NCBI GenBank assembly: GCA_017522905.1
Contig: JAFWXY010000122.1
Coordinates: forward strand, 1-39,439
Origin: Clostridia bacterium
Lineage (GTDB): Bacteria > Bacillota > Clostridia > Oscillospirales > CAG-272
DNA: 39,439 nt
Reading direction: 5' to 3'
Part shown: piece after piece, positions 1,837-39,439 of the stretch
How the letters are laid out: every line of letters begins with the position of its first letter
Position numbering within the stretch: the stretch's first letter is position 1
Notes under the pieces: generated by a model
Databases searched by the model: none
Seen by the model: only the letters and a program-made list of their open reading frames with translations
Told to the model about the DNA's origin: nothing
Made by a program: the position numbers and the translations under genes

Positions 1837-1854
1837 TTAATCGGAGATGGGGAA

Positions 1855-2523: not shown

Positions 2524-2535
2524 GAGGTAAAGGTC

Positions 2536-25141: not shown

Positions 25142-27031
25142 TTATTTCAAATTTCTCATAGAGTTCAATATTGCAATTACCGCAACGCCGACGTCGGCGA
25201 AGATGGCAATTCCGAGTCCAACGATGCCAAGCGCACCGAGGATAAGTGCCAATGCCTTAACAGAGAGGGCAAAGGCGATGTTTTGAATCACAATGCTTCG
25301 GGTTCTCTTTGAAAGGGCAACCGCATCGCCTATTTTTTCAAGGTTGTCATTCATCAGTACAATGTCTGCCGCCTCAATTGCTGCATCGGAGCCAAGCGCA
25401 CCCATGGCAATTCCAACGTCTGCTCGCGCAAGCACGGGAGCATCGTTAATTCCGTCGCCCACGTAGGCGCAAAGCTTTTCGGAGCTTTTCATTATCTCCT
25501 CAAGGGCCGATACCTTGTCAGAGGGCAAAAGCTCGGCGCGATATGAGTTAAGCGAGAGTGCCTCGCAAATTCTCCTTGCCTCGTTTTCCTTGTCACCGCT
25601 GAGCATAACGGTTTTGATAATTCCTTGCTCGAAGAGAGCGGAAATTGCCGTCTTGGCGTTATCCTTGGGTTTATCGGAAAGCGCAAGGGAGCCCAAATAT
25701 CTATTGCCAAGCGCAACGTATACTCCAACGCCAGGCGAAACAGTCTCAACGTCAATATTGCTCTCACGCATAAGCCTGTCGTTGCCTACAAGCAGGATCT
25801 CTCCTTGATATTGTGCCTTTACGCCGAGTCCCGAGATCTCCTCAATTTCCGATACTTCGGGGGAGGGTGCATAGCTATTTTCCTCGCCGAAACGACGGAT
25901 AGCCGCAGCTATGGGGTGGGTAGAATACTTCTCGGATGCCAAAGTAAGTGAGAGAAGCTCGTTCTCGTCAACGCCCTCTCCGCACTTTATTTCAGTTACC
26001 GAGAACACACCCTTGGTAAGGGTTCCTGTTTTGTCAAAGACGATAGTGTCGCAGTGAGAAAGTGCATCAAGGTAGTTGGAGCCCTTTATCAGTATGCCTT
26101 TCTTTGATGCCGCGCCGATGCCGCCGAAATACGAAAGCGGAACCGAGATTACAAGCGCGCAGGGGCAGGAAATAACAAGAAACGTCATCGCGCGCATTAC
26201 CCATTCGCGCCAGATTCCGCTGTCGTTTATGCAGATTATCACAGGGGGCAGTACTGCAAGGAATGCCGCCAAAATAACGACCGTGGGGGTGTAAACACGC
26301 GCAAATTTAGTAATAAAGTCCTCGCTTTTTGACTTGTTCTCGGCAGAGGATTCCACAAGCGCGAGAATTTTTGACACTGTTGATTCTTCAAAGGGCTTTG
26401 TGACTCGAATTTTGAGTACGCCGCCCTCGTTTATGCAACCGCTGAGAGCCTCGTCACCAATCTCAACCGCTCGGGGAAGGGATTCACCTGTGAGAGCCAC
26501 GGTGTTAAGAGAGCTTCTGCCCTCGACTATCACTCCGTCAAGCGGAATCTTTCCGCCCGATTTTACGGTGATAATATCACCGACTTTAATTTCCTCGCAG
26601 TCAATTTCGTCAAGATTTCCATCCTCATCCTCGACAAAAGCAGTGTCTGCGCGGATGGAGAGCAGGGATTTTATCGAGTCGCGGCTCTTTCCAACCGCGA
26701 TGTGCTCAAATAGCTCGCCAACCTGATAAAAGAGCATTACGAATACCGCCTCGGCATATTCGCCCGTGACAAGCGCCGCAATAGTGGCAAGCGACATAAG
26801 AAAATTCTCGTCAAACACCTGTCCGTGGGCAATGTTTTTGCCCGCGCTGAGTAATACGGGATAGCCTACGGGTATGTAGGGAATAAGATAAGCTATCAAG
26901 GGAAAAAGGTCAAATCCCCAAAGGGTAAGCGAGATAGGGAAGCCCCAAAGCTTATCTATAGCGACGATTATACCGAGAGATATAGCCGAGATAATGATGC
27001 GTATCAGTTGTTTTTTGTCTTTTCTTCTCAT
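25142..27031 (-). CDS. cadA: Heavy-metal-translocating P1B-type ATPase (Cd/Zn/Co-type), without a fused N-terminal metal-binding domain
   Basis: Motifs are CPC in TM6 (VISCPCALVIS), FDKTGTLT, SGDK and VGDGINDAPVLARADVG. The symbol is a best guess at the class, not an ortholog call. Confidence 0.8.
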   Translation of the reverse strand: MRRKDKKQLIRIIISAISLGIIVAIDKLWGFPISLTLWGFDLFPLIAYLIPYIPVGYPVLLSAGKNIAHGQVFDENFLMSLATIAALVTGEYAEAVFVMLFYQVGELFEHIAVGKSRDSIKSLLSIRADTAFVEDEDGNLDEIDCEEIKVGDIITVKSGGKIPLDGVIVEGRSSLNTVALTGESLPRAVEIGDEALSGCINEGGVLKIRVTKPFEESTVSKILALVESSAENKSKSEDFITKFARVYTPTVVILAAFLAVLPPVIICINDSGIWREWVMRAMTFLVISCPCALVISVPLSYFGGIGAASKKGILIKGSNYLDALSHCDTIVFDKTGTLTKGVFSVTEIKCGEGVDENELLSLTLASEKYSTHPIAAAIRRFGEENSYAPSPEVSEIEEISGLGVKAQYQGEILLVGNDRLMRESNIDVETVSPGVGVYVALGNRYLGSLALSDKPKDNAKTAISALFEQGIIKTVMLSGDKENEARRICEALSLNSYRAELLPSDKVSALEEIMKSSEKLCAYVGDGINDAPVLARADVGIAMGALGSDAAIEAADIVLMNDNLEKIGDAVALSKRTRSIVIQNIAFALSVKALALILGALGIVGLGIAIFADVGVAVIAILNSMRNLK

Positions 27032-27032
27032 A

Positions 27033-27251
27033 TTAAAGAACTATGCGGCAGTCGGGCTCTATCTTTTTGATAGCCTTCTGCGCTTCCTTGAGGATGCGGT
27101 CAAAATCCTTTTCGTCAGCCTCAATAGTGAGCTTCTGGGTCATAAATGCGATTTTAGCCTCGAGCACACCTTCAATTTTGGAGATAGCAATCTCCATTTT
27201 AGCCGCACAATGTGCGCAATCAAGATCCTCAAGCTTACAAGTCTTTCTCAT
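27033..27251 (-). CDS. Stand-alone heavy-metal-associated (HMA) domain protein
   Basis: It has the CxxC metal site LDCAHCAAKME in a ferredoxin-like about 70-aa protein. ATG at 27251 behind GAGGTG is preferred over the tracked 27287, which would overlap the ArsR gene. Its stop abuts the ATPase start. Confidence 0.8.
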   Translation of the reverse strand: MRKTCKLEDLDCAHCAAKMEIAISKIEGVLEAKIAFMTQKLTIEADEKDFDRILKEAQKAIKKIEPDCRIVL

Positions 27252-27267
27252 AATACACCTCGTTTTA

Positions 27268-27627
27268 TTATTCGTTGATATGGTCAACGCCCATGTTGAT
27301 TATAGTTTTTACGTGGTCGTCGTCAAGGGAGTAGAGGACCGATTTGCCCTCCTTGCGATACTTGACAAGACGCGAATTTTTGAGCACGCGGAGCTGATGC
27401 GATATAGCCGACATGCTCATAGAGAGCTTTTCGGAGATGTCGCATACGCACATTTCGCCCTCAAAGAGGAGATAAAGAATCTTTATGCGGGTACTGTCTC
27501 CAATTACGGAGAAGAACTCTGCAAGCTCAAAGAAATGCTCGTCATCAGGCAATTCTATGCGGTCGATTATCTCGTGATGCGCCTCGTGCGACACACAAAG
27601 CGGAATTCTTGTTTTTTCTTGTGACAT
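27268..27627 (-). CDS. ArsR/SmtB-family metalloregulator (CadC-like)
   Basis: It has the wHTH with the alpha3 Cys motif GEMCVCDISEKL, then LSHQLRVLKNSRLVKYRKEGK, and an N-terminal CVSHEAHHE. ATG at 27627 behind AAAGGAGA is preferred. Confidence 0.85.
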   Translation of the reverse strand: MSQEKTRIPLCVSHEAHHEIIDRIELPDDEHFFELAEFFSVIGDSTRIKILYLLFEGEMCVCDISEKLSMSMSAISHQLRVLKNSRLVKYRKEGKSVLYSLDDDHVKTIINMGVDHINE

Positions 27628-27653
27628 AATCTCGTCTCCTTTCAATAAAACAC

Positions 27654-27669
27654 TTGAACATTTGTTCAA
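27654..27669. promoter_or_regulatory. ArsR/SmtB-type operator: 7-2-7 perfect inverted repeat
   Basis: TTGAACA-TT-TGTTCAA lies immediately downstream of the -10 of the metal-efflux operon promoter. Confidence 0.6.
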
Positions 27670-27677
27670 CTGTTGTT

Positions 27678-27706
27678 ATTATAACATGTTTTTGTGGCAT
27701 TGTCAA
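27678..27706 (-). promoter_or_regulatory. Consensus SigA-type promoter of the arsR-HMA-ATPase operon
   Basis: On the minus strand: TTGACA at 27706-27701, 17 nt of spacer, TATAAT at 27683-27678. Confidence 0.65.
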
Positions 27707-27714
27707 TAGCGTAA

Positions 27715-27748
27715 GCAAAAAAAGCAGGGGCGCGATTACGCGTCCCTG
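27715..27748 (-). terminator. Rho-independent terminator ending the microcompartment operon
   Basis: The minus-strand transcript reads CAGGGACGCG-UAAU-CGCGCCCCUG (one mismatch) followed by CUUUUUUUGC. It lies 18 nt after the stop of the 118-aa gene. Confidence 0.7.
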
Positions 27749-27765
27749 TAATTCTTCGTGCTATA

Positions 27766-28122
27766 TCAGAGGAGATGCACGGGCATCTTTTCACCTACCT
27801 GTACTTTTTCAAACCCCTTATTCTCCTCGTGACCGATAACCGCCTTTACGGTTTCGGGGGAGACGTTTGCAAGTACGGTTGTTTCAACCGCGGTAGGAGG
27901 TGTAAGCTTTTCTGAAGCGGTGGTCTTTTTAGCTGCAGGCTTCTTTGCTGTAGAAGTAGTTTTCTTCGCGGGAGCCTTCTTGGGAGCCGCCGCTGTGGTT
28001 GCCACAAGCTCGGGAGCTATTTTTTCTTCCTTTTTAGCGCTTGTCTTGGGGGCGGTGGTCTTTGCCTCTGTTGTAGCCGGCTTTGCTACTCTTTTTGTAA
28101 TGCTGTCCTTACCTATCGGCAT
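27766..28122 (-). CDS. Small basic low-complexity protein (118 aa), candidate ParA partner / McdB-like adaptor
   Basis: ATG at 28122 has AAAGGAG about 10 nt upstream and overlaps the ParA-like gene by 14 nt. The protein is Lys/Ala/Thr/Pro-rich with roughly 20 Lys. It contains KKAPAKKTTSTAKKPAAKKTT repeats and a basic N-terminus, MPIGKDSITKRVAK. The last about 35 aa are more ordinary. No HTH, Cys or Trp is present. Confidence 0.6.
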   Translation of the reverse strand: MPIGKDSITKRVAKPATTEAKTTAPKTSAKKEEKIAPELVATTAAAPKKAPAKKTTSTAKKPAAKKTTASEKLTPPTAVETTVLANVSPETVKAVIGHEENKGFEKVQVGEKMPVHLL

Positions 28123-28900
28123 ATTTCAAAATCTCCTTTGCCATTTCCATATATTCACCCGCCGCACGGCTGGATTTCTTATAAACCATAACAGGCTTTG
28201 AGTTGTCCTGAGACCACTCGATGTTAGAGTCAACTCTGATTATCGACTCAAAAAGTCTTACGTTTTCAAGAGAGGAAAGTGTTTCAATCGTCTGTTTGAA
28301 GTAATTCTTGCGCTCGCTTGCCTTGGTAATTGCGATACCCATAAGCTCAAGAGAGGGAGAGATCTTCTTAACCTGCTCATAGAACTCGAACATGTTTGCA
28401 AGTCCGAAAAGTCCCCAAGGCGATGCCTCAACGGGAATTACAAGGAAGTCTGACGCGCACATAATGTTCATTGCCCAGCATCCGAGTGTCGGGGGAGCGT
28501 CAATGAGTATGTAGTCGTATTTGCCCGATTCCTTGATCTTTTTAAGACCCTCACGAAGAATGAATTCTCTCTGCCACTTGGTAAAGAGCTGGAACTCGAT
28601 TCCGCTCATAAGGGTGGAGGAGGGAATGAGATCGAGGTTTTCGTACTCGGTTGCTCTTGCAAAGTCGGAAAGATCGCGCTGCTCAACTATTCCTACGTAA
28701 ATATTCTTCTGGCTCTTTGCCATTTCAAGTGACTGCTCGTCGTCAAAGAACTGCAAGGTCAGATTCATCTGCATATCGGCGTCGATAAGCAGAACTCTTT
28801 TTCCGAGTGTTGAAAGCGAATATCCTACGTTAGCGCAGGTAGTTGATTTTCCGCTTCCGCCCTTGTTGTTGGCAAAGCAGATTGTCTTGGTTGCAGACAT
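28109..28900 (-). CDS. ParA/MinD-family P-loop ATPase (deviant Walker A)
   Basis: The deviant Walker A is ANNKGGSGKST, with the signature Lys. Walker A' is LLIDADMQ and Walker B is YILIDAPP. RBS GGAGGGG lies 5 nt upstream of the ATG. Only 24 nt separate it from the EutP/PduV stop. Confidence 0.85.
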   Translation of the reverse strand: MSATKTICFANNKGGSGKSTTCANVGYSLSTLGKRVLLIDADMQMNLTLQFFDDEQSLEMAKSQKNIYVGIVEQRDLSDFARATEYENLDLIPSSTLMSGIEFQLFTKWQREFILREGLKKIKESGKYDYILIDAPPTLGCWAMNIMCASDFLVIPVEASPWGLFGLANMFEFYEQVKKISPSLELMGIAITKASERKNYFKQTIETLSSLENVRLFESIIRVDSNIEWSQDNSKPVMVYKKSSRAAGEYMEMAKEILKYADR

Positions 28901-28924
28901 GGCGTCCCCTCCGTCAATTTGATT

Positions 28925-29356
28925 TTAGTCGTTAAGATATGCGATAATTCTGTCAAATCCTTCGCCTGTATACGAGCTGATGTAAAACATTTTCTCGGGT
29001 TTAACGCCGCAATTGGCAAGCCATCGCTCTACAAGCGGAACGTTGGCGTCGGGCTTGTCTATGCCCGAAATGATGCCTATAACGTCGCGGTTGACGTGGT
29101 GCGTGCAGTTGGGCGGGAATACGCAAAAGGGCTCGTTTGCGCTTATTACAAGACCGATAACGTCAGCCTCGTAGGAGTAAACGCCAAGCGCCGCCGCCAA
29201 GGTGTGCACCTCGGTGTACTCTCCGGGAGTATCGATTATCGTGTCCATGTAATTTATATATTGGGTCTTGCAGTAGTGTATCTGCTCGCCCTTCAAGGCT
29301 TGAGTCAGCGTGGTCTTGCCCGCGGCAACTCTGCCCATCAAAATAAGCTTCTTCAT
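28925..29356 (-). CDS. EutP/PduV-family small GTPase
   Basis: MKKLILMGRVAAGKTTLTQAL (P-loop), then IDTPGEY. The about 143-aa length fits the family. The ATG at 29356 overlaps the upstream stop (TAATG). The tracked 29377 start lies inside the upstream gene. Confidence 0.85.
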   Translation of the reverse strand: MKKLILMGRVAAGKTTLTQALKGEQIHYCKTQYINYMDTIIDTPGEYTEVHTLAAALGVYSYEADVIGLVISANEPFCVFPPNCTHHVNRDVIGIISGIDKPDANVPLVERWLANCGVKPEKMFYISSYTGEGFDRIIAYLND

Positions 29357-29727
29357 TATGTTCTTGTCATCTCGCAAACGGTGAACTTGAGATTGTTTCT
29401 GAAGTATTCCGTGATTGCGGAGAATGATGCCTCGACCTCTGCGACCTTACCTGTGATTATGAGAGTGCCGGAGAATCTGTCAACAAATCCGAGGTCTGCG
29501 CCCGAGGATTTGAGGGCGATATCTGCGGTAATAACCGCGGTCTCCGCAGGGCTAACGGTGAGAACACCGATAGCAGCCTTTTCATAATCAAGCTTGGGAT
29601 CAAGACCAAGCTTCTGATAAAGCGTGGGGTCGGGATTTGCGATAATGTGAGCAAGTGTGATCTGTCGACCGGGTACAAGCTCCTGTACTATTCGCATTTT
29701 ATCCTGATATTCAAATGAATTAATCAT
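29356..29727 (-). CDS. Circularly permuted BMC shell protein (PduU/EutS type)
   Basis: RIVQELVPGRQITLAHIIANPD...AIGVLTVSPAETAVITADIALKSSGADLGFVDRFSGTLIITG closely follows the PduU/EutS pattern. Confidence 0.85.
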   Translation of the reverse strand: MINSFEYQDKMRIVQELVPGRQITLAHIIANPDPTLYQKLGLDPKLDYEKAAIGVLTVSPAETAVITADIALKSSGADLGFVDRFSGTLIITGKVAEVEASFSAITEYFRNNLKFTVCEMTRT

Positions 29728-29740
29728 ATGCTATCTCCTT

Positions 29741-30538
29741 TTAGCCTCCTATCTGCACGCGCAGACTGGGAGCAGCTCTTTTTGCGACCTTTAAAAGGTC
29801 TGCCATAAGCTCGTTAGATGGGGGTTCAATTCCTTCCATTAGGTACTGACGTCCGAGACCTACGTATTTGTCCTGTCCGAGTCGGTGGTAGGGGAGCAAG
29901 TGAAGCTCGCGCACACCGTCAAGGCTTGACGCAAATCTTGCAATCGCCGCGATCTCATCGGTAGTTGCATTAAAGGTGGGAACTGTGGGAACGCGGATAA
30001 TCAGGTTTTTCGCGTTCTCTGCAATAAATTTTGCGTTTTCGAGTATCTGCTCGTTACCCCTGCCCGTGAATTCTTCGTGTTTCTTAGAATCCATATGCTT
30101 GATGTCCATCAAAAAATAATCAACGTGTGGGAGGAGTCTTGCAACTACGTCGCGGCTCGCGCACGCGGTAGTCTCGATTGCGGTATTAAAGCCGTAATCA
30201 TGGCAGGCGCGCAAAAGCGCCTCTGCAAAGTCGGGCTGAGCCATACACTCGCCGCCCGAAAGGGTAATTCCGCCGCCGCTTCTCTCGTAATATCTGCGGT
30301 CCCCGGAAAGCTCGTCCATAAGCTCGCCAACGGTTACGTCACGGCCCATGATTTCTTTCTTGCCCGCTCGAGTCATTTCCTCTATGTTATAGCTCTGTGA
30401 CTCGGGGTTGCAGCACCAACGGCAACGAAGATAGCAGCCCTTGAGAAAGACAATGGTTCTGATTCCGGGACCGTCGTGCAGAGAATATCTCTGTATATCA
30501 AATATTCTTCCGCCAACAGAATAAATATCCTTATTCAT
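29741..30538 (-). CDS. Glycyl-radical enzyme activating enzyme (radical SAM)
   Basis: FDIQRYSLHDGPGIRTIVFLKGCYLRCRWCCNPES carries the CX3CX2C motif. GGITLSGGE is also present. ATG at 30538 behind AAGGAG is preferred. No additional CxxCxxCxxxC motifs are present. Confidence 0.9.
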   Translation of the reverse strand: MNKDIYSVGGRIFDIQRYSLHDGPGIRTIVFLKGCYLRCRWCCNPESQSYNIEEMTRAGKKEIMGRDVTVGELMDELSGDRRYYERSGGGITLSGGECMAQPDFAEALLRACHDYGFNTAIETTACASRDVVARLLPHVDYFLMDIKHMDSKKHEEFTGRGNEQILENAKFIAENAKNLIIRVPTVPTFNATTDEIAAIARFASSLDGVRELHLLPYHRLGQDKYVGLGRQYLMEGIEPPSNELMADLLKVAKRAAPSLRVQIGG

Positions 30539-30673
30539 GCCTTTCTCCTTTCTCAAGATTTGCTGTGATTTATAAAAGTGAATTCTTATGAAGGTTTTAG
30601 GAAGGGGCTCGGGGAGAACCCTTTTGGGAAAGGATTTCCCCGGCGCATACCCTCGCGTCCCCTCGCATCCCCC

Positions 30674-33205
30674 TTAAATTCCCGACTGCTCGGTACGGTT
30701 GATAATATCGTCCTGGAGTGAGCGGGAGAGGGTTGTAAAGAGTGCGCTGTATCCTGCTACGCGGACAACAAGCGTCTTATACTTTTCGGGATTCTTCTGC
30801 GCATCAAGGAGGGTCTCTCTTGATACGACGTTATACTGAACGTGCATACCCTTTTGATCAAAGTAACCACGCAGATAAGCCACGAACTTTTCAAGTCCGC
30901 CCATTCCTGCAAGTGCGGAGGGGTGGAACTTCTGGTTGAAGAGTGTACCGTTAGATGCGATACCGTGGTCAAGGCGAGCAACCGAGTTTGCGGTAGCTGT
31001 CGGGCCCTTGACGTCTCTGCCCGATGCGAGGCCTACGCCGTCCGCGATAGGTGTGAAGGCAAGTCTGCCGTCGGGAGTAGCACCTGTCTGGTATCCAAGC
31101 GGAACGTTTGCGGAAACAGGGTAAAGACCTGCCTGGAAAACGCCGCCACGGTTGTTTGTGAAGTTAGCGAAGGGCTTTGTATAGGTGTTTCCAACCTGAC
31201 GCGCAAATGCGTCAACCTCGGGAATATCGTTTCCGTACTTGGGAAGAGCAGCGATCATATCAAGGATCTCCTGATATCTCGCCTTCTTTTCTGCACTAAT
31301 AGAATCTGCGTTTGTGATGTTCTTATATACAGCGCGGATAATTTCCTCATTCACCTGAACTCCGTTTGCGTCAAGCTGACGTGCAACCTCGGTTGTAAGC
31401 TCAAGAGCCTTCTTGGGGATAAGTCCCTTGCCGAAGTTATCCTGAAGCGCCTCCTTCATCTCACGCATAGTGACCTTCTTCTCGTCGAACACGAGGGTCT
31501 TCATAGCGAGGAGCGCATCGGTCATATTAGCGATACCGAATCCCTGAGGACCTGTGAAGTTGTAGTGCGCGCCACCCTCCTGAAGAGATACGCCGCGCTC
31601 AATGCAGTCGTTGCAAAGCGAGGACTGGAAGGGGAGAGGACAACGAACGCTGTGGGCGTAGTCAACAGCATTGTCCGCGTGTACCATCATTTCTATAAAG
31701 TGGAGCTGCTGAGCCTTGTAAGCCTCAAAGAACTCCTCAAACGTCTTCATTTTCTCAACGTCACCGGTCTGGAGGCCAATAAGCTCGCCCTTGTCATATC
31801 CGTTTGAGAATACAAGCTCGAGGGGACGGCACATATTGAAGAATGCCGCGTCGTGCCAACCGTCGGTACGCGCGCCCTTCTGGGGCTCAACGCAACCTAT
31901 GATGCAGTAGTCACGCGCATCCTCAAGTGTAAGACCTCTTGACATGATAGAGGGAATAATTACCTCGTCGTTGTAGAATGCGGGCACACCGAGGCCCTCG
32001 CGGGTAACGGCAGCCGCCTTGATAAGCAAGTCGTGGGGTGTCTTGTTCCATACACGGATGGAAAGAGAGGGCTGGGGGAGACGAACGTGAACCGTTGCTT
32101 CCATACACATATAAGAAAGCTCGTTCGTTACGTCAACACCCTCCTCGTTCTGACCGCCTACAATGAGGTTCTGGAAGAGGCCGTAGCCTGCAAAGCCCTC
32201 GGCAGATGCCGCGTCACGAACCTTGTTGAGGTCGTTGAGCTTTACCCAGATACAGTCGAGATATTCCTGCGCGGAGGTGATCGTCTCGCGTCCGGAATCG
32301 ATATCCTTCTTGAACAAAGGGTACATATACTGGTCGAAGCGTCCGGGAGAGATAGAGTGTCCGCTCGACTCGCACTGGAGAAGCTGCTGAATGAACCAGA
32401 AGCTCTGGCAAGCCTCGTAGAAGCCTCTTGCAGGCTTTGCGGGAACCTGAGCGCACGCCTCACTGATGCGGAGAAGCTCTGCGCGACGAATAGAGTCAGT
32501 GCAAGCATCCGCCTCTCTCTTTGCGAGAGCAGAGTATCTCTTGGCGTAGGTGATAACACCTTCACAGCTCTCAAGAACAGCCTCAAGGAAGGCCTTGCGC
32601 TTAAGGTAATCTCCGTTGCCTATGTAGAGCTTTGCGAGAGCCTCGCGGGTCTCTGCCATAACGCCCTCAAGACCGCAGTTTATAACCTTTGCGTAATCTA
32701 CGTTGATGTGACCGATACCGTTATAGAAGTAGTTTCCTACTGTAAATATTCCGTGATTTAAGAATACGTCAAGCACCTTTTCGTCCATGCTCTGTGCGGC
32801 AAGGTCGCTTACGGTCTTGCCCTTCCAGTAAGGATATACCTTCTTCAGTCTCTCAACAGTAGAAGGAGAGATATAGAAGGGGTCAGCCTCACGTGTAGCA
32901 ACCGTGTCGTATTCCTTTTCAAGCCACTCATAGGAATATTCGGGGAAGGTCTGGCATCCGCGGGGCGCTATCGAGTTGCTTCCTACGATAAGCTCGTCGG
33001 GACGAATGACTATCGGAATATTCTCAAGAATGTGGCGGAACGCCGCGGAGCGGCGCTTTATTATCGGCAAGCCCTCGGTCGCCTTGTAGCTTTCGGTTAC
33101 AAGCTCGGCTCTGTCAGCCTCGATCTCGGGCATATTAGCATATAAATGATCGATAAGTCTCTGAATTCTCGGACTTTTCTCGATTACAAATTTGATTTGA
33201 CTCAT
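30674..33205 (-). CDS. Glycyl radical enzyme of the B12-independent diol dehydratase class (probable 1,2-propanediol dehydratase)
   Basis: The glycyl radical motif is VVRVAGYSA (Gly818). The Cys loop is IIGCVEPQ (Cys438/Glu440), followed by GWHD (Asp452). GIGHINVDY provides His166. The sequence is alignable end to end with my recollection of C. butyricum DhaB1, apart from one internal insertion of about 50 aa. YPVSANV stands where glycerol dehydratase has YPSSINV. Confidence 0.9.
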   Translation of the reverse strand: MSQIKFVIEKSPRIQRLIDHLYANMPEIEADRAELVTESYKATEGLPIIKRRSAAFRHILENIPIVIRPDELIVGSNSIAPRGCQTFPEYSYEWLEKEYDTVATREADPFYISPSTVERLKKVYPYWKGKTVSDLAAQSMDEKVLDVFLNHGIFTVGNYFYNGIGHINVDYAKVINCGLEGVMAETREALAKLYIGNGDYLKRKAFLEAVLESCEGVITYAKRYSALAKREADACTDSIRRAELLRISEACAQVPAKPARGFYEACQSFWFIQQLLQCESSGHSISPGRFDQYMYPLFKKDIDSGRETITSAQEYLDCIWVKLNDLNKVRDAASAEGFAGYGLFQNLIVGGQNEEGVDVTNELSYMCMEATVHVRLPQPSLSIRVWNKTPHDLLIKAAAVTREGLGVPAFYNDEVIIPSIMSRGLTLEDARDYCIIGCVEPQKGARTDGWHDAAFFNMCRPLELVFSNGYDKGELIGLQTGDVEKMKTFEEFFEAYKAQQLHFIEMMVHADNAVDYAHSVRCPLPFQSSLCNDCIERGVSLQEGGAHYNFTGPQGFGIANMTDALLAMKTLVFDEKKVTMREMKEALQDNFGKGLIPKKALELTTEVARQLDANGVQVNEEIIRAVYKNITNADSISAEKKARYQEILDMIAALPKYGNDIPEVDAFARQVGNTYTKPFANFTNNRGGVFQAGLYPVSANVPLGYQTGATPDGRLAFTPIADGVGLASGRDVKGPTATANSVARLDHGIASNGTLFNQKFHPSALAGMGGLEKFVAYLRGYFDQKGMHVQYNVVSRETLLDAQKNPEKYKTLVVRVAGYSALFTTLSRSLQDDIINRTEQSGI

Positions 33206-33241
33206 GTTTATCTCCTTTGGAGAGAATGTAAGGTAATTTTA

Positions 33242-33787
33242 TTAGATCTGATTCCAGAGAAGCTCGTGGGGAGCGGCGATTACGGAGGAGTTGCAGAATA
33301 CTCCCTGATCCTTTGCGTGCTGTGCGCCGGCCTCAACTGCGGCAGTAACGTCGCCGACCTCACCCGTGATAAGGCAAATACCCTTACCGCCCATGCCGCG
33401 GGATGCGCGAAGCTCAAAGATCTCTACGCGAGCGGTCTTTACAGCAATATCCGCAGCCTTGATAATGGAAGCGGCGGAGAATGTCTCGATTACGCCAAGG
33501 CTTCCTTTCTTTTCAGAAAGAACCGTGCCGAAGAGAGCGGTGATTACCTGCTCGTCAATACGACCCATTACGGAAACGTCAACGAGCTTGTCTTCAAAGC
33601 GGCTCTTAACGTGATCAACTGCGCTCGTTACGTTGGATATAGTACCTGTAAGAATGATCTCAAACTTACCGGGACAAGCTGCGCGAGCAGAAACAAGAGT
33701 TACGCCTGCGCTTTTGAGGGCGGCATCTGTAGCCTCGATGCCCTTGGATATACTTTTAAGTTCAATTACACCAACTGCCTGATACAT
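33242..33787 (-). CDS. Tandem-domain BMC-T shell protein (PduT-like, probable [4Fe-4S] pore)
   Basis: It has two BMC domains in 181 aa. Cys38 in ARAACPGKF is at the position of the PduT cluster ligand. Confidence 0.85.
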   Translation of the reverse strand: MYQAVGVIELKSISKGIEATDAALKSAGVTLVSARAACPGKFEIILTGTISNVTSAVDHVKSRFEDKLVDVSVMGRIDEQVITALFGTVLSEKKGSLGVIETFSAASIIKAADIAVKTARVEIFELRASRGMGGKGICLITGEVGDVTAAVEAGAQHAKDQGVFCNSSVIAAPHELLWNQI

Positions 33788-33844
33788 TTTTGTGCAATAC
33801 CTTTCTGTGCTAAATTTATATGTGTGGTTCGGATTATCGTAATG

Positions 33845-35167
33845 TTATGCCTCGATAACGATCTTTGTGGGATCGCAGGATACAACGGTACCCGAGATCG
33901 AAGCGTACTGAGGAACTGAGAGACCTGCTCCTGCATTTGCGATCATATCGCCGACCTTTACTGTGTCGCCAACGCTTACGCAGGGCACGGAGGGTGCTCC
34001 GATATGCTGGGACATAGCAATCTCAACGCGGGAAGCGGTAAGGGTCTTAGGCAGATAAGTCGGGATCTTATCAAACTTAAGCACGCCAAGCATGTCGCTC
34101 CACTTACTTGACTTAATAAGTCTGTAGGGACGGTCGGGATTTACGGGGAAATCCTTGTCGGCAACAAATCTGATCTTGTTCTTGCCAAGGATCTTCTTGA
34201 GGTTAAGAATAACGTCCTTGGGAGAGATGTTCTGGCAGCAAACCTCGGCACATACACCGCAAGAGCAGCAAAGCGATGCGGTAGCGATGAGCTCGGGGTG
34301 ATCCTCAACTACGGTGTTGAGTGCCGCACGGATCATCTTGTGGGGCTCAAGCGGATAGCCGAGCTGATGACGGGGGCACATTTCAGTACAACGTGTGCAT
34401 CCACAGCAAGCCGAAGCCGCTCTGCGGAGCATGTCGTCCATGCTAATCTGCTTGCCTTCAATTGCGCGGGTGTTGTTGGGGAGAATAAGAAGAGATTTTG
34501 TGGTCTTTCTTACTACTGCGCGGTCGGGATTTATGATGCTTCCCATAGAGGGTCCGCCGTCGATAACCGAGTGGTTCTCATCAACCTTGATACCAAGCTT
34601 CTTGAAAATCTCGGAAACTCTCATACCGATAGGAGCCTTGAATGCGATCTTCTCGGGAACGTCGCCGCCAATTGTGATCCACTTTTCAATTACGGGCTTG
34701 CCGGACTCGATTGCCTCACACGCATTGTAAACAGTCTCAGAGTTCATAACGATAACTCCTGCTGTAATCGGAAGGTTACCGGGTCTTACAAGTCTGCCAG
34801 TAGCCTCGTATATAAGTCCGATTTCATCACCGATGGGGTAGATACTCGGTAGATATTTAATTGTTACGTTTTTGCCTACTGCTTCGCCGTCAGAATAGCC
34901 AAGAGCCTCTGCGCGGTATCCCTTGATTGCAACGTATGTATGCTTGATATTTGTTGCTTCCATAATGAGCTCTGCTCCATGTGCAACCTTTGCCATCTCT
35001 TCGCGGCAGATGGTCAAATCGGTATAAATCAGGGGCTCGCACTCAGCGGCGTTGATGCAAAGAATATCTGCACCGTCTGCGAGCTTTGCATAAGTGGGGA
35101 AACCTGCACCTCCTGCACCTACGACACCGGCGTTCTGTAATAATGTTTTGATCTCTGTGATTGACAT
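33845..35167 (-). CDS. PduS/RnfC-like Fe-S flavoprotein
   Basis: It has the nucleotide/FMN motif GVVGAGGAGFPT. Two ferredoxin motifs are present, CCGCTRCTEMCP and CCSCGVCAEVCC. ATG at 35167 lies behind AAAGG (the tracked start at 35182 is GTG). Confidence 0.85.
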   Translation of the reverse strand: MSITEIKTLLQNAGVVGAGGAGFPTYAKLADGADILCINAAECEPLIYTDLTICREEMAKVAHGAELIMEATNIKHTYVAIKGYRAEALGYSDGEAVGKNVTIKYLPSIYPIGDEIGLIYEATGRLVRPGNLPITAGVIVMNSETVYNACEAIESGKPVIEKWITIGGDVPEKIAFKAPIGMRVSEIFKKLGIKVDENHSVIDGGPSMGSIINPDRAVVRKTTKSLLILPNNTRAIEGKQISMDDMLRRAASACCGCTRCTEMCPRHQLGYPLEPHKMIRAALNTVVEDHPELIATASLCCSCGVCAEVCCQNISPKDVILNLKKILGKNKIRFVADKDFPVNPDRPYRLIKSSKWSDMLGVLKFDKIPTYLPKTLTASRVEIAMSQHIGAPSVPCVSVGDTVKVGDMIANAGAGLSVPQYASISGTVVSCDPTKIVIEA

Positions 35168-35235
35168 TTGCGTACCTTTCACCGCAGATTGCGGTATTGT
35201 TGATTTATATTTACCTTAATATTACCTACTACCTA

Positions 35236-35496
35236 CTACTGAATCTTATCTACAACTCCGACAACAACTGCGTCAATGGGGCAGCTCTCGTCGCAAAGCG
35301 CCATTCTCGCACCGCTTCCAGTCGTAATAAGCACCTCTTCGCCGATACCCGCGCTTACCGTGCGGTCAACAGCAACGATGTACTTGTCAGTAAGCTGTGT
35401 GTTCTCGATAAGCTGTATCTCAAGGAACTTGAAGCCAACGAGCTTGTCGAGCTTATTCGTAGATACGATATTTCCTATTACTTTTCCTCTTAACAT
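35236..35496 (-). CDS. BMC-P pentameric vertex protein (EutN/CcmL family)
   Basis: MLRGKVIGNIVSTNKLDKLVGFKFLEIQ...AVDRTVSAGIGEEVLI..GS.AR. The length is 86 aa. Confidence 0.9.
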   Translation of the reverse strand: MLRGKVIGNIVSTNKLDKLVGFKFLEIQLIENTQLTDKYIVAVDRTVSAGIGEEVLITTGSGARMALCDESCPIDAVVVGVVDKIQ

Positions 35497-35517
35497 TTTA
35501 TATTACCTCTTAATAAA

Positions 35518-36189
35518 TTACTTAACGGGAACTACGGTAGAGCCATTTTTGAAGCCAACTGCGTTAGCATCATCGGTGTCAACGTGCATTTCAAGGCGGA
35601 AGTCCTTGTGAACGCGGACCTGAACGTCAAACCAGCGTGTGCGCTTGGTTCCGCTCATCGCGTCAACGTCGATATAGTCGCCATCCTTAACACCAAAGTG
35701 AGCTGCGTCATCGGGAGACATGTGGATGTGGCGGTTTGCTATGATACAGCCCTCTGAGAGCTGAACGATGCCCTTAGGACCGATAATTGTTATAGGAGCA
35801 GATCCTGCGATCTTACCCGACTCTCGTACGGGGGGCTTGACCTTGAGAATATAGGAATCTGTAACCGATATCTCAACCTGGCTTGCGCGACGAACGGGGC
35901 CGAGAACACGGACACCCTCGATAGAGCGCATAGAAGGACCCACGATTGTAAGTGTCTCCTTGCAAGCGTACTGACCGGGCTGGGAGAGATCCTTGAAGTG
36001 GGTAAGGGAGTAACCCTTGCCAAAAAGTATCTCAAGATGCTCCTGGGAGAGGTGAATGTGGCGGTTAGAGATACCAACGGGGATCTCGTAGCCTGTTTTC
36101 TGGGGAGCGGATGTCTTTGCACCGCCGTCCTCCATCTCGGAAACTATCCTTTTAACGATAGCTTCAATTTCGATGTTAGATATGTTCAT
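35518..36189 (-). CDS. pduL: Phosphate propanoyltransferase PduL with N-terminal encapsulation peptide
   Basis: It has the duplicated PduL signature GISNRHIHLS and ANRHIHMSPDDA. The N-terminal amphipathic helix NIEIEAIVKRIVSEM is followed by a Gly/Ala/Pro linker. Confidence 0.9.
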   Translation of the reverse strand: MNISNIEIEAIVKRIVSEMEDGGAKTSAPQKTGYEIPVGISNRHIHLSQEHLEILFGKGYSLTHFKDLSQPGQYACKETLTIVGPSMRSIEGVRVLGPVRRASQVEISVTDSYILKVKPPVRESGKIAGSAPITIIGPKGIVQLSEGCIIANRHIHMSPDDAAHFGVKDGDYIDVDAMSGTKRTRWFDVQVRVHKDFRLEMHVDTDDANAVGFKNGSTVVPVK

Positions 36190-36352
36190 GATAGAACTCC
36201 TTTCAGAAATTCTCGCAAATTTTCATATAAAAACGTTCAAAAACACCCTTGAGCGCAGATATACGAAAATTTAAAAGAGTTAGGGGGGCGGGGTGTCCCA
36301 CCCGCAAAAACGGGTAGGACACGTCCCGGGACTTCCTCCAAATCGACTTATA

Positions 36353-36628
36353 TTAGCCGAGTGTGGGGAGAAGCTTGTTAACGTCGGTGTGAGGACGGGG
36401 AATAACGTGAGTTGCAACAACCTCACCGAGGTTTGCTGCAGCTGCGCCGCCTGCCTCAACAGCAGCCTTAACTGCGCCAACGTCGCCGCGAACCATAACG
36501 CTTACGAGTCCGCTACCGATCTTCTCGGAGCCGATCAGCTGTACGTTTGCTGCCTTAACCATAGCATCTGCTGCCTCGATAGCAGCTACAAGTCCTCTGG
36601 TCTCTACCATTCCAAGAGCTTCATTCAT
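36353..36628 (-). CDS. BMC-H hexameric shell protein (PduA/EutM type)
   Basis: [27 protein letters not shown]...[25 protein letters not shown]. The length is 91 aa. Confidence 0.9.
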
Positions 36629-36717
36629 AGTAAAATTCTCCTTTTTGGATAAAAATTTTTAAGATTTAGATTATTCGGGGTCACCCCGATAATTTTAGTG
36701 TTATAACAGGTGCGAAA

Positions 36718-37002
36718 TTAAACGCCCTTATCTGTTTTAATAAATCTCACGATGTCTGCGTGCGGACGAGCGATAACCTCTGCGCATGCAACGTTACCAA
36801 CGGCCTTTGCCGCCTCAACTCCTGCCTCAAGAGCAGCAGTTACTGCGGAAACATTGCCCTCGACAACTACTGTTACGAGTCTTCCGCCAAGACGCTTTTC
36901 AACGTGGATAAGCTTGACGTTCGCCGCCTTGACCATTGCGTCAAGACCAACGATAGCCGTTACCATAGCTTGAACCTCAAGCAAAGCGATAGCGTTTTCC
37001 AT
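36718..37002 (-). CDS. BMC-H hexameric shell protein (divergent paralog)
   Basis: [57 protein letters not shown]. The length is 94 aa. Confidence 0.9.
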   Translation of the reverse strand: MENAIALLEVQAMVTAIVGLDAMVKAANVKLIHVEKRLGGRLVTVVVEGNVSAVTAALEAGVEAAKAVGNVACAEVIARPHADIVRFIKTDKGV

Positions 37003-37079
37003 AGTTTTTCTCCTTAATAAGTAATTTTGGGAGTGAAAAGCGAAGCTTTACCTCTTCACCTTTCACTCTTCACTTTTAC

Positions 37080-37355
37080 TTAACCGAGTGTGGGGAGAAG
37101 CTTGTTAACGTCGGTGTGGGGGCGGGGAATAACGTGAGTTGCAACAACCTCGCCAAGACGAGCTGCAGCAGCGCCGCCTGCCTCAACAGCAGCCTTAACT
37201 GCGCCAACGTCGCCACGAACCATAACGCTTACGAGTCCGCTACCGATTTTCTCGGAGCCGATAAGCTGTACGTTCGCTGCCTTTACCATTGCGTCTGCTG
37301 CCTCGATAGCAGCTACAAGTCCTCTGGTCTCTACCATTCCAAGTGCTTCATTCAT
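37080..37355 (-). CDS. BMC-H hexameric shell protein (PduA/EutM type), near-identical paralog of 36353..36628
   Basis: 90 of 91 residues are identical to the 36353..36628 product (Arg versus Asn in AAA[R/N]LGEVV). Confidence 0.9.
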
Positions 37356-37410
37356 GAGTTTTTTCTCCTTTTATTTTCAAATAATTTTTTATAAATTTTG
37401 TGTATCCGAC

Positions 37411-37743
37411 TTATTTGTCGAGATTTCTGAGCTTATCCTTGCCTGTTGCGGTAAGATCTGCAAACCACTGAACCTGATCGTCAAGTCCCGCGATAACCTT
37501 TGACGTGATGTAAAGTCCGCGGCGCTCTGCCTCGGCAACACCTGCATCGTGTGCAGACTGAACTGCACCTGCGTTACCCATAAACTTGACCACCATAACG
37601 AGCGGTACGGGACAAGCATCTGCATTTGCAGGCTTGTTCTTGTCAATGGCTACAACTTTTACGTCAGCCGTCTTGGCAACGACGTCTGCAACAACTATCG
37701 AGGTCGTGTAGCCGTAGACCTCTATCATACCGAGAGCTGCCAT
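37411..37743 (-). CDS. Atypical BMC-H shell protein with extended Cys-containing pore loop and C-terminal tail
   Basis: The BMC fold signature is ALGMIEVYGYTTSIVVADVVAKTADVKV...VVKFMGNAGAVQSAHDAG. The usual K-I-G-S-G pore loop is replaced by DKNKPANADACPVPL. The protein has 110 aa. Confidence 0.75.
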   Translation of the reverse strand: MAALGMIEVYGYTTSIVVADVVAKTADVKVVAIDKNKPANADACPVPLVMVVKFMGNAGAVQSAHDAGVAEAERRGLYITSKVIAGLDDQVQWFADLTATGKDKLRNLDK

Positions 37744-37758
37744 ATTTGCGCCCTCTTA

Positions 37759-38985
37759 TCACTCGTTGATATAGCAGATCTTGATTCCTGCCTGAGCAAC
37801 GTTTGTTTCCATAGCCTCGTTCATCTTGTCGAGGGGGAAGGAGTGAGTAATGAGATCCTCGATCGGGATGTTCATCTCGCGGCACTGCTTAAGGAATGCC
37901 ACTGTCTTAGGATAATCCTCTGCGGAGTAGTCCCAGGAGCCTACGATGTCGATCTCCTTGTTACACATAGCGAGGTGGGGGTTAACCTGATACTCGCCGT
38001 TGTTTACGAAGAAGCCCATTTCGCACATACCGCCGCCGCGGCGGATGTAGCTGTAAATATCTGCAGCTGCAACAGGGGCACCTGTGCACTGGTAAGCAAA
38101 GTCAACGCCAACGCCGTTAGCGATTGCCTTGACCTTTGCAACTCTCTTATCAAGAGTGTCCTCATCGGGACGGCGGAAGCAGATAGTTGTCTTAGCGCCC
38201 ATCTTTTGTGCGACCTTAAGTCTGTCCTCATTACCGTCAACTGCGATGATGTGGTTGATACCGGCAGCGCGGAGAACAGTGATCATAACAAGACCAACAG
38301 GTCCGCAGCCCTGAACGAGGACCTTGGAGCCGAAGTTGAGAAGACCCGTCTTCTGACCTCTCTCAAGTGCGTGTACGCAAACGCAAGCAAGCTCAAGGAT
38401 CATTCTCTGCTTGAGGTCAAGCTCGTTGACCTGGAAATATGTAGCGCCGAGTCCGCCCTTGATAACCATGTAATCTGCAAACCAACCGTTTACGCGGTTG
38501 CCTTCATTCTGACCTCTCCTGTCACCGATAAGTCCGAAAACGCCCTGATTGTCGCAGAGGTTTGTTCTTCCGGGAACCATGCGGCATGCGTAGCATTCGC
38601 CGCAGCTGATAACAGAGGTAACGATCTTGTCGCCAACTCCGAGAGGCTTTCCTGCGGTGTCGACCTTGATGTTCTTTCCGACTGCAACGACCTCACCGGT
38701 GCCCTCGTGACCGAGGATAACGGGTATAAGGCCGAACGGGTCGGACTTCCATTCATGAACGTCTGTACCGCAGATTCCCGCACCCTCAACGCGGATGAGA
38801 ATGTCGTCGTCACCGAGCGGAGGAATGGGAAGCTCTTGTACTTCAATCTTCTTTGTACCGGTAAGCATTGCGACGCGAGCCTTTGTGGGGATGGAGCCTG
38901 CCGCCTTAGGAGCGGATGCGCCTGCACCCATGGAGCTTATCACGGAGCGAACTATGCTTTCGATCTGGGAAGCTGTAATATCCAT
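37759..38985 (-). CDS. Zn-dependent medium-chain alcohol dehydrogenase with N-terminal encapsulation peptide
   Basis: The catalytic Zn site is GICGTDVHEW and GHEGTGEVV. The structural Zn site is CGECYACR...C. The Rossmann motif is VQGCGPVGL. An N-terminal extension of about 35 aa reads ASQIESIVRSVISSM plus a Gly/Ala/Pro linker. Confidence 0.85.
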   Translation of the reverse strand: MDITASQIESIVRSVISSMGAGASAPKAAGSIPTKARVAMLTGTKKIEVQELPIPPLGDDDILIRVEGAGICGTDVHEWKSDPFGLIPVILGHEGTGEVVAVGKNIKVDTAGKPLGVGDKIVTSVISCGECYACRMVPGRTNLCDNQGVFGLIGDRRGQNEGNRVNGWFADYMVIKGGLGATYFQVNELDLKQRMILELACVCVHALERGQKTGLLNFGSKVLVQGCGPVGLVMITVLRAAGINHIIAVDGNEDRLKVAQKMGAKTTICFRRPDEDTLDKRVAKVKAIANGVGVDFAYQCTGAPVAAADIYSYIRRGGGMCEMGFFVNNGEYQVNPHLAMCNKEIDIVGSWDYSAEDYPKTVAFLKQCREMNIPIEDLITHSFPLDKMNEAMETNVAQAGIKICYINE

Positions 38986-39027
38986 TTTGTTTCTGTCCTT
39001 TCTGAAAATTTGCTGTTCTTCCTATTA

Positions 39028-39439
39028 TTAAATAATACGGAAGCTGTCGACCATTACGCAACGGCGCTTTCTTGTAAAGGAGCGAGCCGATGTGATACCC
39101 TCACCGGTAGGACCTGCGATCGTAAAGGTCGTGTGTCCCTCGCCGCCGAATCCGATTCCTGCGTAAGAGGGAGCGTTCTTTACAAATATAGTGGTCTCAA
39201 CCGCGCGTGCAAACGCCGTGAGGTTGTCGATGTTTTTGGAATGCATATGTGCTGTATGGCGGTTGCCGTGCTCAGCCTTGACCGCAAGCTTGATAGCTTC
39301 GTCTATGTCCTTGACGCGAACGATACCCAGAATAGGCATCATAAGCTCCTCCTGGACAAATTCGTGCTCGAAGGGAACCTCCGCGATAGCGCATCTTATG
39401 TCGTCACCGACCTTGATGCCGATCTTTTCAAGGATGACC
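39028..39439 (-). CDS. CoA-acylating aldehyde dehydrogenase (PduP/EutE family), C-terminal part only
   Basis: MMPILGIVRVKDIDEAIKLAVKAEHGNRHTAHMHSKN...IFVKNAPSYAGIGFGGEGHTTFTIAGPTGEGITSARSFTRKRRCV matches the EutE/PduP C-terminus. The reading frame stays open to the window edge. Confidence 0.85.
   Translation of the reverse strand, partial: VILEKIGIKVGDDIRCAIAEVPFEHEFVQEELMMPILGIVRVKDIDEAIKLAVKAEHGNRHTAHMHSKNIDNLTAFARAVETTIFVKNAPSYAGIGFGGEGHTTFTIAGPTGEGITSARSFTRKRRCVMVDSFRII

Follow-up and report, generated by a model that had tools for sequence, protein, structure and literature searches.

A ParA-type ATPase and its disordered basic partner at the end of a glycyl-radical microcompartment operon: a candidate McdAB-like positioning system in gut Clostridia

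Why should a catabolic microcompartment operon end with a gene for a ParA-type ATPase and a gene for a small, lysine-rich protein? The question is raised by contig JAFWXY010000122.1 of the Clostridia bacterium assembly GCA_017522905.1, positions 1 to 39,439 of which are referred to here as the window. Its minus strand carries an operon for a bacterial microcompartment (BMC) of the glycyl-radical-enzyme type (GRM), and the two genes are the last cistrons of that operon. They probably constitute a McdAB-like Brownian-ratchet positioning system dedicated to the compartment encoded by the same operon. This had been proposed in the original prediction, which was made from the letters of the window alone, and it proved to be the best reading of the evidence, being supported by conserved synteny with PduV, with the glycyl-radical enzyme (GRE) and with BMC-T, and by the invariant N-terminal peptide of the partner protein.

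In the proposed mechanism, the ParA-type ATPase (hereafter ParA) would dimerise with ATP and sit on the nucleoid, and the disordered partner would attach to the outside of the shell through its C-terminal motif (...G-x-K-M-P-x-aromatic-L-L). The invariant basic N-terminal peptide of the partner, MPIGKDSITKRVAK, would dock at the ParA dimer interface and stimulate ATP hydrolysis and release. ParA would be depleted around the compartments, which would then climb the ParA gradients, with the outcome that they would be kept apart and off the poles and would be inherited by both daughter cells. What the sequences show is the structure of the genes, their place in the operon, their exclusive and conserved synteny with it, the motif architecture, the predicted disorder and the intact catalytic motifs of the ATPase; the individual binding steps and the effect on positioning are inferred from the analogous McdAB and ParABS systems.

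Structure and conservation of the gene pair

ParA is encoded at 28109-28900 (minus strand) and is a 263-aa, Soj-like ParA/MinD-family protein, the candidate McdA analog, with Pfam matches to AAA_31 (1e-52) and CbiA (4e-19). Its gene has no promoter of its own; it starts 24 nt past the stop codon of a gene for a PduV/EutP-family small NTPase (28925-29377, minus strand; Pfam PduV-EutP, 2.5e-45), and a GGAGGGG ribosome-binding site (RBS) lies within this gap at 28906-28912. The ParA stop overlaps the start of the partner gene by 14 nt (28109-28122, minus strand). The partner gene (27766-28122, minus strand) has an AAAGGAG RBS at 28139-28133 and encodes 118 aa plus the stop, and its product is the candidate McdB-like adaptor. 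Directly after it stands an intrinsic terminator (27717-27749, minus strand) composed of a hairpin at 27749-27724 and a U7 tract, with a folding energy of −20.9 kcal/mol (z = −4.7; 0 of 200 shuffled sequences as stable). The pair therefore occupies the 3' end of the GRM operon with the terminator next to it, within a cluster of 16 minus-strand genes in which every intergenic gap is at most 163 nt. The gap, both ribosome-binding sites, the ParA motifs described below, the overlap and the terminator had all been read from the sequence in the original prediction and were borne out.

The overlap of the two genes suggests translational coupling. Because ParA and the partner are the last cistrons of the operon and are probably coupled in this way, the pair would be made only when the organelle is made. 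This arrangement also bears on a different explanation, in which the pair is a DNA-partition or chromosome-organisation module, composed of a type Ib-like ParA and a small DNA-binding ParB analog, which has merely become fixed by the GRM operon or which serves the segregation of a stretch of chromosome or of a one-time mobile element, without any role in the microcompartment. With no promoter of its own for ParA, expression of such a module would depend on induction of the catabolic operon, which suits an organelle factor rather than a DNA-segregation system. Together with the distribution of the family described next, this makes the partition module very improbable.

Judged by similarity searches, the partner family is small and specific: clustering at 90% gives 439 homologs, and clustering at 50% leaves 85 representatives in 1.84 billion proteins. 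When one genome was scanned for each species, the partner was found in 65, all of them metagenome-assembled genomes (MAGs) from animal and human guts that are assigned to Clostridia, Eubacteriales or Oscillospiraceae. When these loci were annotated by BLASTP against the window proteins, every one of them gave the gene order ...PduL-EutN-PduS-BMC-T-GRE-activase-BMC-H-PduV-ParA-partner, with identities to the window copies of 69-98% for ParA and 34-77% for the partner. A distant subfamily of the partner, with the pattern MPIGKNSIKRV-x-NNGYS...APDMENS...G-x-E-M-P-x-Y-L-L, was found in 37 metagenome loci at the same place in the same type of operon, and there ParA was 52-73% and the GRE 68-71% identical to the window proteins. 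With the loci from individual look-ups this gives about 110 in total, all from uncultured gut Clostridia, and the partner always follows ParA at the end of a GRM operon. The comparative-genomic check put forward with the original prediction, which asked for an association between this ParA with its small Lys-rich partner and BMC loci, was thus answered in its favor for the GRM operon.

The association held in all but single loci among those with enough DNA upstream of ParA. PduV stands upstream of ParA in 77 of the 78 pooled loci with at least 700 nt of upstream DNA, and both the GRE and BMC-T are present in 45 of the 46 with at least 5.5 kb. ParA and the partner overlap by 14 nt in 102 related loci and by 26 nt in 6, and in 73 of 99 related loci at least five consecutive T residues follow the partner at a distance of no more than 90 nt. 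The identity of ParA to the window copy co-varies with that of the GRE, BMC-T, EutN, PduV and BMC-H (Spearman 0.84-0.93). While the upstream BMC genes are constant, the downstream flank differs by lineage and contains an ArsR cassette, PRK, TspO or glycosidases, so that the pair was deduced to travel with the BMC operon. Both this variable flank and the restriction of the partner to GRM operons, outside which it was not found in the genome and metagenome scans, are contrary to a partition module.

The plasmid and phage collections gave the same result. A tblastn search of 72,556 plasmids and 50,697 phages with the partner found no match, and the best plasmid-borne ParA was only 40% identical. 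One of the loci (L063) lies on a 1.78-Mb MAG chromosome. No multi-copy centromere-type or parS-like repeats were found in 27000-30000, where only short two-copy chance matches were seen, and the rest of the window, 25 kb of ordinary chromosomal DNA with housekeeping genes, contains no replication, mobilisation or phage genes. A plasmid or phage partition module was accordingly rejected. A predominance of the pair beside plasmid or phage replication modules had been named in advance as the finding that would speak against the original prediction, and no such predominance was seen.

Some features of the assemblies were noted in the course of these scans. In the distant subfamily, the metagenome contigs (L070-L073 and many of L074-L110) very often end within ParA or a little upstream of it, possibly owing to repeated BMC-H paralogs upstream that hamper assembly. 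Four distant-subfamily proteins came from short contigs broken inside ParA, and their context was resolved by the metagenome scan. In P0257, P0252, P0299 and P0302 the C-terminal block of the partner is joined to an IF-2-like N terminus, a zinc ribbon or a signal-peptide-like start; these proteins are probably assembly or gene-calling chimeras across low-complexity DNA coding for Lys, Ala and Pro. A 357-aa ParA match, P0202, was considered as a natural fusion of ParA and the partner and was rejected, being an internal duplication or assembly artefact.

Motifs of the partner protein

The partner is rich in K (17.8%), A (16.1%), T (15.3%), P (9.3%) and E (9.3%), with an isoelectric point of 9.9, and K, A, T, P, S and E together make up about 70% of its residues, in agreement with the basic, Lys/Ala/Thr/Pro-rich character first ascribed to it. 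By composition count its sole aromatic residue is one Phe within the last 40 residues, and in 64 of 65 orthologs there are no aromatics outside the last 40 residues. No family was matched in scans of the window protein against Pfam and NCBIfam, and no helix-turn-helix (HTH), ribbon-helix-helix (RHH) or ParB/Srx domain was found. The absence of such a domain had been stated at the outset, as had that of parS-like repeats and of nearby replication or mobilisation genes, and each of these statements stands. AlphaFold2, run with a 28-sequence alignment, gave a mean predicted local distance difference test score (pLDDT) of 55 and a predicted template modelling score (pTM) of 0.15, and the sole secondary structure was a helix at residues 89-96. 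Because both scores are low and only this one short helix was modelled, the whole partner looks disordered, with conserved linear motifs. The disorder call was taken from the pLDDT, as none could be derived from a home-made TOP-IDP window profile. Disorder of the 118-aa protein had been anticipated, and the prediction extends it to the full length; the suggestion that the last ~35 residues would be foldable found no support, and it was the only sequence-level statement of the original prediction of which this was true.

The first motif is the basic N-terminal peptide MPIGKDSITKRVAK (residues 1-14; 28081-28122, minus strand), which is the predicted ParA-binding and ATPase-stimulating motif. It reads M-P-I-G-K5-D-S-I-T-K10-R11-V-A-K14 and carries a net charge of +2.5. 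In the family alignment (A1), M1, I3, G4, K5 and S7-A13 are invariant; the peptide is identical in 32 of the 65 genome loci, the remainder differing at one to three positions, and the MPIGK core is kept in the distant subfamily. The h-G-K/R motif in this peptide recalls the N-terminal ParA-binding peptide of ParB, a resemblance that would favor the partition module. That ParB motif has been described (PMC12462528). The peptide equally fits the basic N-terminal ATPase-interaction peptide through which the partner proteins of ParA/MinD ATPases generally act (PMC12139897). For McdB of Halothiobacillus neapolitanus, the first 20 residues suffice for McdA binding and are also required for it, with K7 being critical (PMC12139897).

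The second motif, EEKIAPELVATTAAAP (residues 32-47; 27982-28029, minus strand), is a conserved central block with an AP[ED][LM] core. It follows the pattern E-x-x-IAPELVAT-x-AAAP, in which E32, A36, P37, E38, L39, A41, T42 and P47 are invariant in alignment A1, and in the distant subfamily APDMENS is found at the equivalent place. It is followed by residues 48-78 (27889-27981, minus strand), a stretch of Lys/Ala/Pro/Thr repeats (AKKTT, AKKP) that is histone-H1-like by composition and has a net charge of about +8. The Lys-rich linkers between the conserved blocks vary freely in length among the orthologs of the alignment. Some members of the family match Pfam HC2 (histone H1-like), and some are named HU-like by a source.

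The third motif is the C-terminal block (residues 79-118; 27769-27888, minus strand), the predicted shell-binding end. In the window it reads V-x-T-x-V-L-x-N-V-S-P-E-T-V-x-A-V-I-G-H...G-E-K-M-P-V-H-L-L, and the family consensus in alignment A1 is V-x-T-x-V-L-x-N-V-S-P-E-T-V-x-A-V-I-G-H-x-E...G-x-K-M-P-x-[aromatic]-L-L. Among 100 complete open reading frames with the N-terminal motif, 97 end in P-x-[Y/H/F/W]-L-[L/M], and the three exceptions are frameshifted or N-masked assemblies. The residue at −3 was found to be Y in 51, H in 24, F in 18 and W in 5 partners, and an acidic residue occurs at −4 to −9 in 63 of 98. Carboxysomal McdBs have an invariant C-terminal Trp, which is needed for carboxysome binding (PMC11321042; PMC8359340), and in the putative McdB-like proteins by PDU and GRM loci a Tyr or Phe is found among the last five positions, in many cases with an acidic residue close by (PMC11321042; PMC8359340 section 2.9). 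The −3 aromatic of the partner family matches this published hallmark of McdB. The want of a C-terminal Trp had been raised as a caveat from the start; it is true of the window copy, which has His at −3, but it is largely resolved for the family, given the ending shared by all complete members other than the three faulty assemblies. The only tryptophans of the family are those at −3 in five partners of the distant subfamily that end in ...MPYWLL (L076, L078, L079, L099 and L100), and these echo the Trp of carboxysomal McdB.

Taken as a set, the small size, the position downstream of the ATPase, the basic N terminus, the disordered low-complexity sequence and the −3 aromatic are hallmarks of McdB, and they are found here in a protein that has no detectable sequence homology to McdB and belongs to no Pfam or NCBIfam family. 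Some of them would also suit a shell-associated or luminal scaffold, that is, a CsoS2-like disordered basic organiser or an encapsulation-peptide protein nucleating cargo or shell assembly, with ParA acting as an assembly or disaggregation chaperone rather than as a positioning motor. The partner is disordered by prediction, basic and repetitive, the helix at 89-96 is predicted to be amphipathic and its C terminus is conserved, and McdAB itself has an effect on the size and assembly of carboxysomes too (bioRxiv 10.1101/2025.09.22.677801). The combination of an invariant basic N-terminal peptide with a conserved overlap with the ParA gene is, however, the signature of ParA/MinD partners (PMC12139897) and not of scaffolds, and the position as last cistron gives no sign of the high abundance that a scaffold needs. 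The scaffold was for these reasons deemed the least probable of the explanations considered.

The ATPase and its DNA-binding surface

The catalytic motifs of ParA are intact at the sequence level, comprising the signature Lys, the Walker A' Asp and the Walker B motif. The deviant Walker A motif K13-G-G-S-G-K18-S-T (28841-28864, minus strand) lies within NNKGGSGKST and includes the ParA signature lysine K13, and it is accompanied by LLIDAD (D42) and ILIDAPP (D134). A signature Lys is present in the alpha and beta-type-2 McdA proteins. K13 aligns with K16 of Bacillus subtilis Soj. Across the 90 members of the ParA clade, 60 of the 263 positions are invariant, including K13-GGSGK18-ST, D42 and D134. 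The pocket for the ParB peptide in Myxococcus xanthus ParA consists of six hydrophobic residues, V116, L150, L152, L155, L187 and L192 (PMC12462528). When these were mapped by hand through the alignment with structure 8RAY, they corresponded to F103, L, C, M, Q and I in the window ParA, so that five of the six are hydrophobic here.

Several observations must be weighed against a McdAB-like positioning system, and the first concerns the relationship of the ATPase. ParA is nearer to chromosomal Soj/ParA proteins (1e-34 to 1e-22) than to the characterised McdA 6NOO (7e-15); the nearest solved structure is the M. xanthus chromosomal ParA 8RAY (1e-34), and HpSoj was matched at 3e-23. This similarity is a further point for the partition module. 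A word-indexed protein search with ParA returned only relatives of more than 82% identity and so did not reach the nearest clades outside BMC loci.

A second observation concerns DNA binding. R197, the equivalent of Soj R189, is invariant in the clade, as are K198 and R245, and this basic patch is completed by R222 (96%), position 241 (K 96%, R 4%) and position 242 (K 78%, R 22%). The second canonical DNA-binding Arg is absent: the residue in the window is N226 (28223-28225), with T, A or N across the clade, and the equivalent of Soj R215 is V223 (28232-28234), with V or I across the clade. The counterparts of N226 are R218 in B. subtilis Soj, R238 in M. xanthus ParA and R224 in Caulobacter crescentus ParA (PMC7229837, PMC12462528). 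Since ParA-like ATPases in general show little conservation of their DNA-binding determinants (PMC7229837), nucleoid binding by ParA stays plausible.

Thirdly, the partner itself may bind DNA, which would place it outside the McdB paradigm; this is suggested by the Lys-rich repeats together with the domain insertions found in three orthologs. These orthologs, from three separate 50%-identity clusters (P0271, L067:10001-10594; P0267, L111:6641-7555; P0260, L112:10001-10696), contain a bona fide FtsK_gamma winged-helix domain (Pfam E 2e-13 to 4e-18) placed between the N- and C-terminal motifs that they share with the other partners, and each of the three follows ParA in a GRM operon. In P0271 most of the Lys-rich stretch has given way to an acidic one. 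P0260 and P0267 retain the Lys-rich repeats, and thus FtsK-gamma was concluded to be an addition and not a clean replacement.

The altered ParA surface and the possible DNA binding of the partner can be combined into a variant in which the partner binds DNA, through its H1-like repeats or through FtsK-gamma, and the shell through its C terminus, so that the compartments are anchored on the chromosome and ParA regulates or mobilises this tether instead of being the sole nucleoid-bound matrix. We know of no bacterial microcompartment for which an adaptor that tethers the organelle directly to chromosomal DNA has been described. The variant draws on the charge and the AKKP and AKKTT repeats of the central region, on the family members that match HC2 or are named HU-like, on the three FtsK_gamma clusters in GRM operons, on the exchange of the Lys-rich stretch of P0271 and on the lack of equivalents of Soj R218 and R215 throughout the ParA clade. 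Basic disordered regions are, however, known to drive McdB condensates without DNA binding (PMC11321042), FtsK-gamma stands beside the Lys-rich repeats in P0260 and P0267 and does not substitute for them, ParA keeps its basic patch, and the loss of individual DNA-binding residues carries less weight given their poor conservation across ParA-like ATPases (PMC7229837). The tether was judged unlikely on balance, though to be taken seriously. The same repeats and FtsK-gamma variants could serve a partition module by binding DNA; only a minority of orthologs have FtsK_gamma, and the HTH, RHH and ParB/Srx domains are lacking from the window partner.

The remaining observations of this kind concern the residue at −3, the synteny and the behavior of another metabolosome. 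The window copy has His116 at −3, not Tyr, Phe or Trp, and His is not among the reported aromatics. As the family is found in one GRM operon architecture and in one group of gut Clostridia, the synteny may reflect a single acquisition followed by vertical or whole-operon inheritance rather than repeated independent association; the pair may have been acquired once and then retained under purifying selection. Finally, McdAB of H. neapolitanus did not reposition the Pdu compartments of Salmonella, which need neither ParA nor MinD (PMC12866334), so that metabolosomes do not universally use such systems. With these points taken into account, a positioning system of the McdAB type was still held to be the probable function of the pair.

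Operon context and relation to known systems

Upstream of PduV, the rest of the GRM operon (29356-39439, minus strand; assigned by Pfam) encodes BMC-H (123 aa), the GRE activase, the GRE, BMC-T, a PduS/RnfC-like flavoprotein, EutN/BMC-P, PduL, four BMC-H proteins, a zinc alcohol dehydrogenase and an aldehyde dehydrogenase, the reading frame of which runs past the end of the window. The GRE (843 aa, 30674-33205) scored 578 bits against the CutC cut-off of 1050 and fell below all specific NCBIfam equivalogs; it is therefore not CutC, and the compartment was deduced to be a non-choline GRM. At one distant locus (L070, GRE at 1794-3995) an alpha-L-rhamnosidase gene lies just downstream, a hint of a deoxy-sugar or 1,2-propanediol context.

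Past the terminator, the window contains a cassette of ArsR, an HMA metallochaperone and a P-type ATPase (25142-27706, minus strand). Its promoter at 27706-27678 is a perfect TTGACA-17-TATAAT sigma-70 consensus with a TG extension and begins a few bases after the GRM terminator. The same cassette is found downstream in about 20 related loci, in some of which ~1-7 kb of other DNA lies between.

For PduV, a Ras-like NTPase, a role in moving Pdu compartments has been proposed, and PduK is an anti-aggregation shell protein in Salmonella. To our knowledge, these two are the only factors so far implicated in the spacing or inheritance of catabolic microcompartments. Like the present pair, they are encoded in metabolosome operons and implicated in the spatial distribution of catabolic BMCs, and the PduV/EutP homolog of the window lies directly upstream of ParA; they belong to other protein families, with other presumed mechanisms. 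The homolog scored 131.7 bits, just under the NCBIfam EutP/PduV cut-off of 138.35, and the EutP family is also annotated as acetate kinase (NCBIfam NF012011). The original prediction had drawn attention to two NTPases lying side by side. Their adjacency is real and is conserved in all but one of the loci that extend far enough; in view of the acetate kinase annotation, however, the two may be one positioning ATPase and one metabolic kinase, and the adjacency therefore need not mean two positioning factors.

Among characterised systems, the closest likeness is to the alpha-McdAB of H. neapolitanus (PMC8359340; PMC12139897; PMC11321042). Both consist of a ParA-type ATPase with the signature Lys and, directly downstream inside the BMC operon, a small, nearly fully disordered, low-complexity partner with no coiled coil. 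In both, the partner has a basic N-terminal peptide of up to about 20 aa and a C-terminal aromatic motif, which in McdB binds the cargo. The present family differs in having no detectable similarity to McdB and an ATPase nearer to Soj/ParA; in having Y, H or F, and rarely W, fixed at −3 within a longer P-x-aromatic-L-L end; in having the additional central AP[ED][LM] motif and an H1-like Lys-rich middle, sometimes with FtsK-gamma; and in its cargo, which would be a catabolic GRM in anaerobic Firmicutes. McdBs are not defined by homology, the mean identity among all of them being 6.7% (PMC11321042).

Chromosomal ParABS or Soj-Spo0J systems (M. xanthus ParA 8RAY, PMC12462528) contain the closest ATPase by sequence, with the same catalytic motifs, the R189 of Soj matched by R197 and a largely hydrophobic ParB-peptide pocket, and the I-G-K-D-S-I of the partner N terminus resembles the L-G-R/K-G-L motif of ParB. 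They differ in that the partner described here lacks the ParB/Srx CTPase, HTH and dimerisation domains, parS is missing, the pair forms part of a catabolic operon, and ParA lacks the second DNA-binding Arg (Soj R218).

The concept of such a pair beside a metabolosome has already been published as a prediction, and the novelty claimed for it at first was overstated. A 2014 study drew attention to ParA (PF01656) genes in BMC loci (Axen 2014, PMC4207490), and McdA/McdB-like genes, with a C-terminal Tyr, were reported within or next to metabolosome loci, GRM and PDU among them, in 2021 (MacCready 2021, PMC8359340 section 2.9, Fig. 8f; MacCready & Vecchiarelli 2021, PMC8262871) and again in 2024 (Basalla 2024, Fig. 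4, PMC11321042). MacCready 2020 makes no mention of GRM/PDU McdB-like sequences, and Sutter 2021 and a 2026 GRE review have nothing on ParA in GRM loci. A 2025 review treats McdAB-like genes near non-carboxysome BMCs as a suggestion (PMC13052382), and a 2026 preprint regards carboxysomal McdAB as the only known minimal organelle-positioning system (bioRxiv 10.1101/2025.09.22.677801). The statement that no such system has been characterised experimentally in a metabolosome continues to hold, as no report of a native test of a McdAB-like pair in one was found in the literature to August 2026.

The published GRM/PDU pairs resemble the present one, by their descriptions, in having a ParA-like gene and a small partner in or beside the metabolosome operon, with Tyr or Phe in place of Trp within the last 4-5 residues and often an acidic residue nearby. 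Those reports give a handful of examples, whereas here a family of about 110 loci is delimited, with its motifs and its His, Trp and FtsK-gamma variants. The family is a new, or at least newly delimited, case of a kind already known from predictions. What appears to be new in detail is the tripartite motif architecture, the aromatic fixed at −3, which can also be His or Trp, the variants with FtsK-gamma and a ParA with an altered DNA-binding surface.

The pair represents a well-delimited candidate for the spacing and inheritance of catabolic microcompartments, a minimal two-gene module found at about 110 orthologous loci. Its three short conserved motifs are open to direct mutation at K5/K10/R11, at the AP-E-L core and at the −3 aromatic. 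It could in addition extend the choice of positioning tags with which engineered organelles are organised (bioRxiv 10.1101/2025.09.22.677801). The FtsK-gamma variants and the altered ParA surface of these uncultured gut Clostridia hint at a mechanistic twist on the positioning of organelles.

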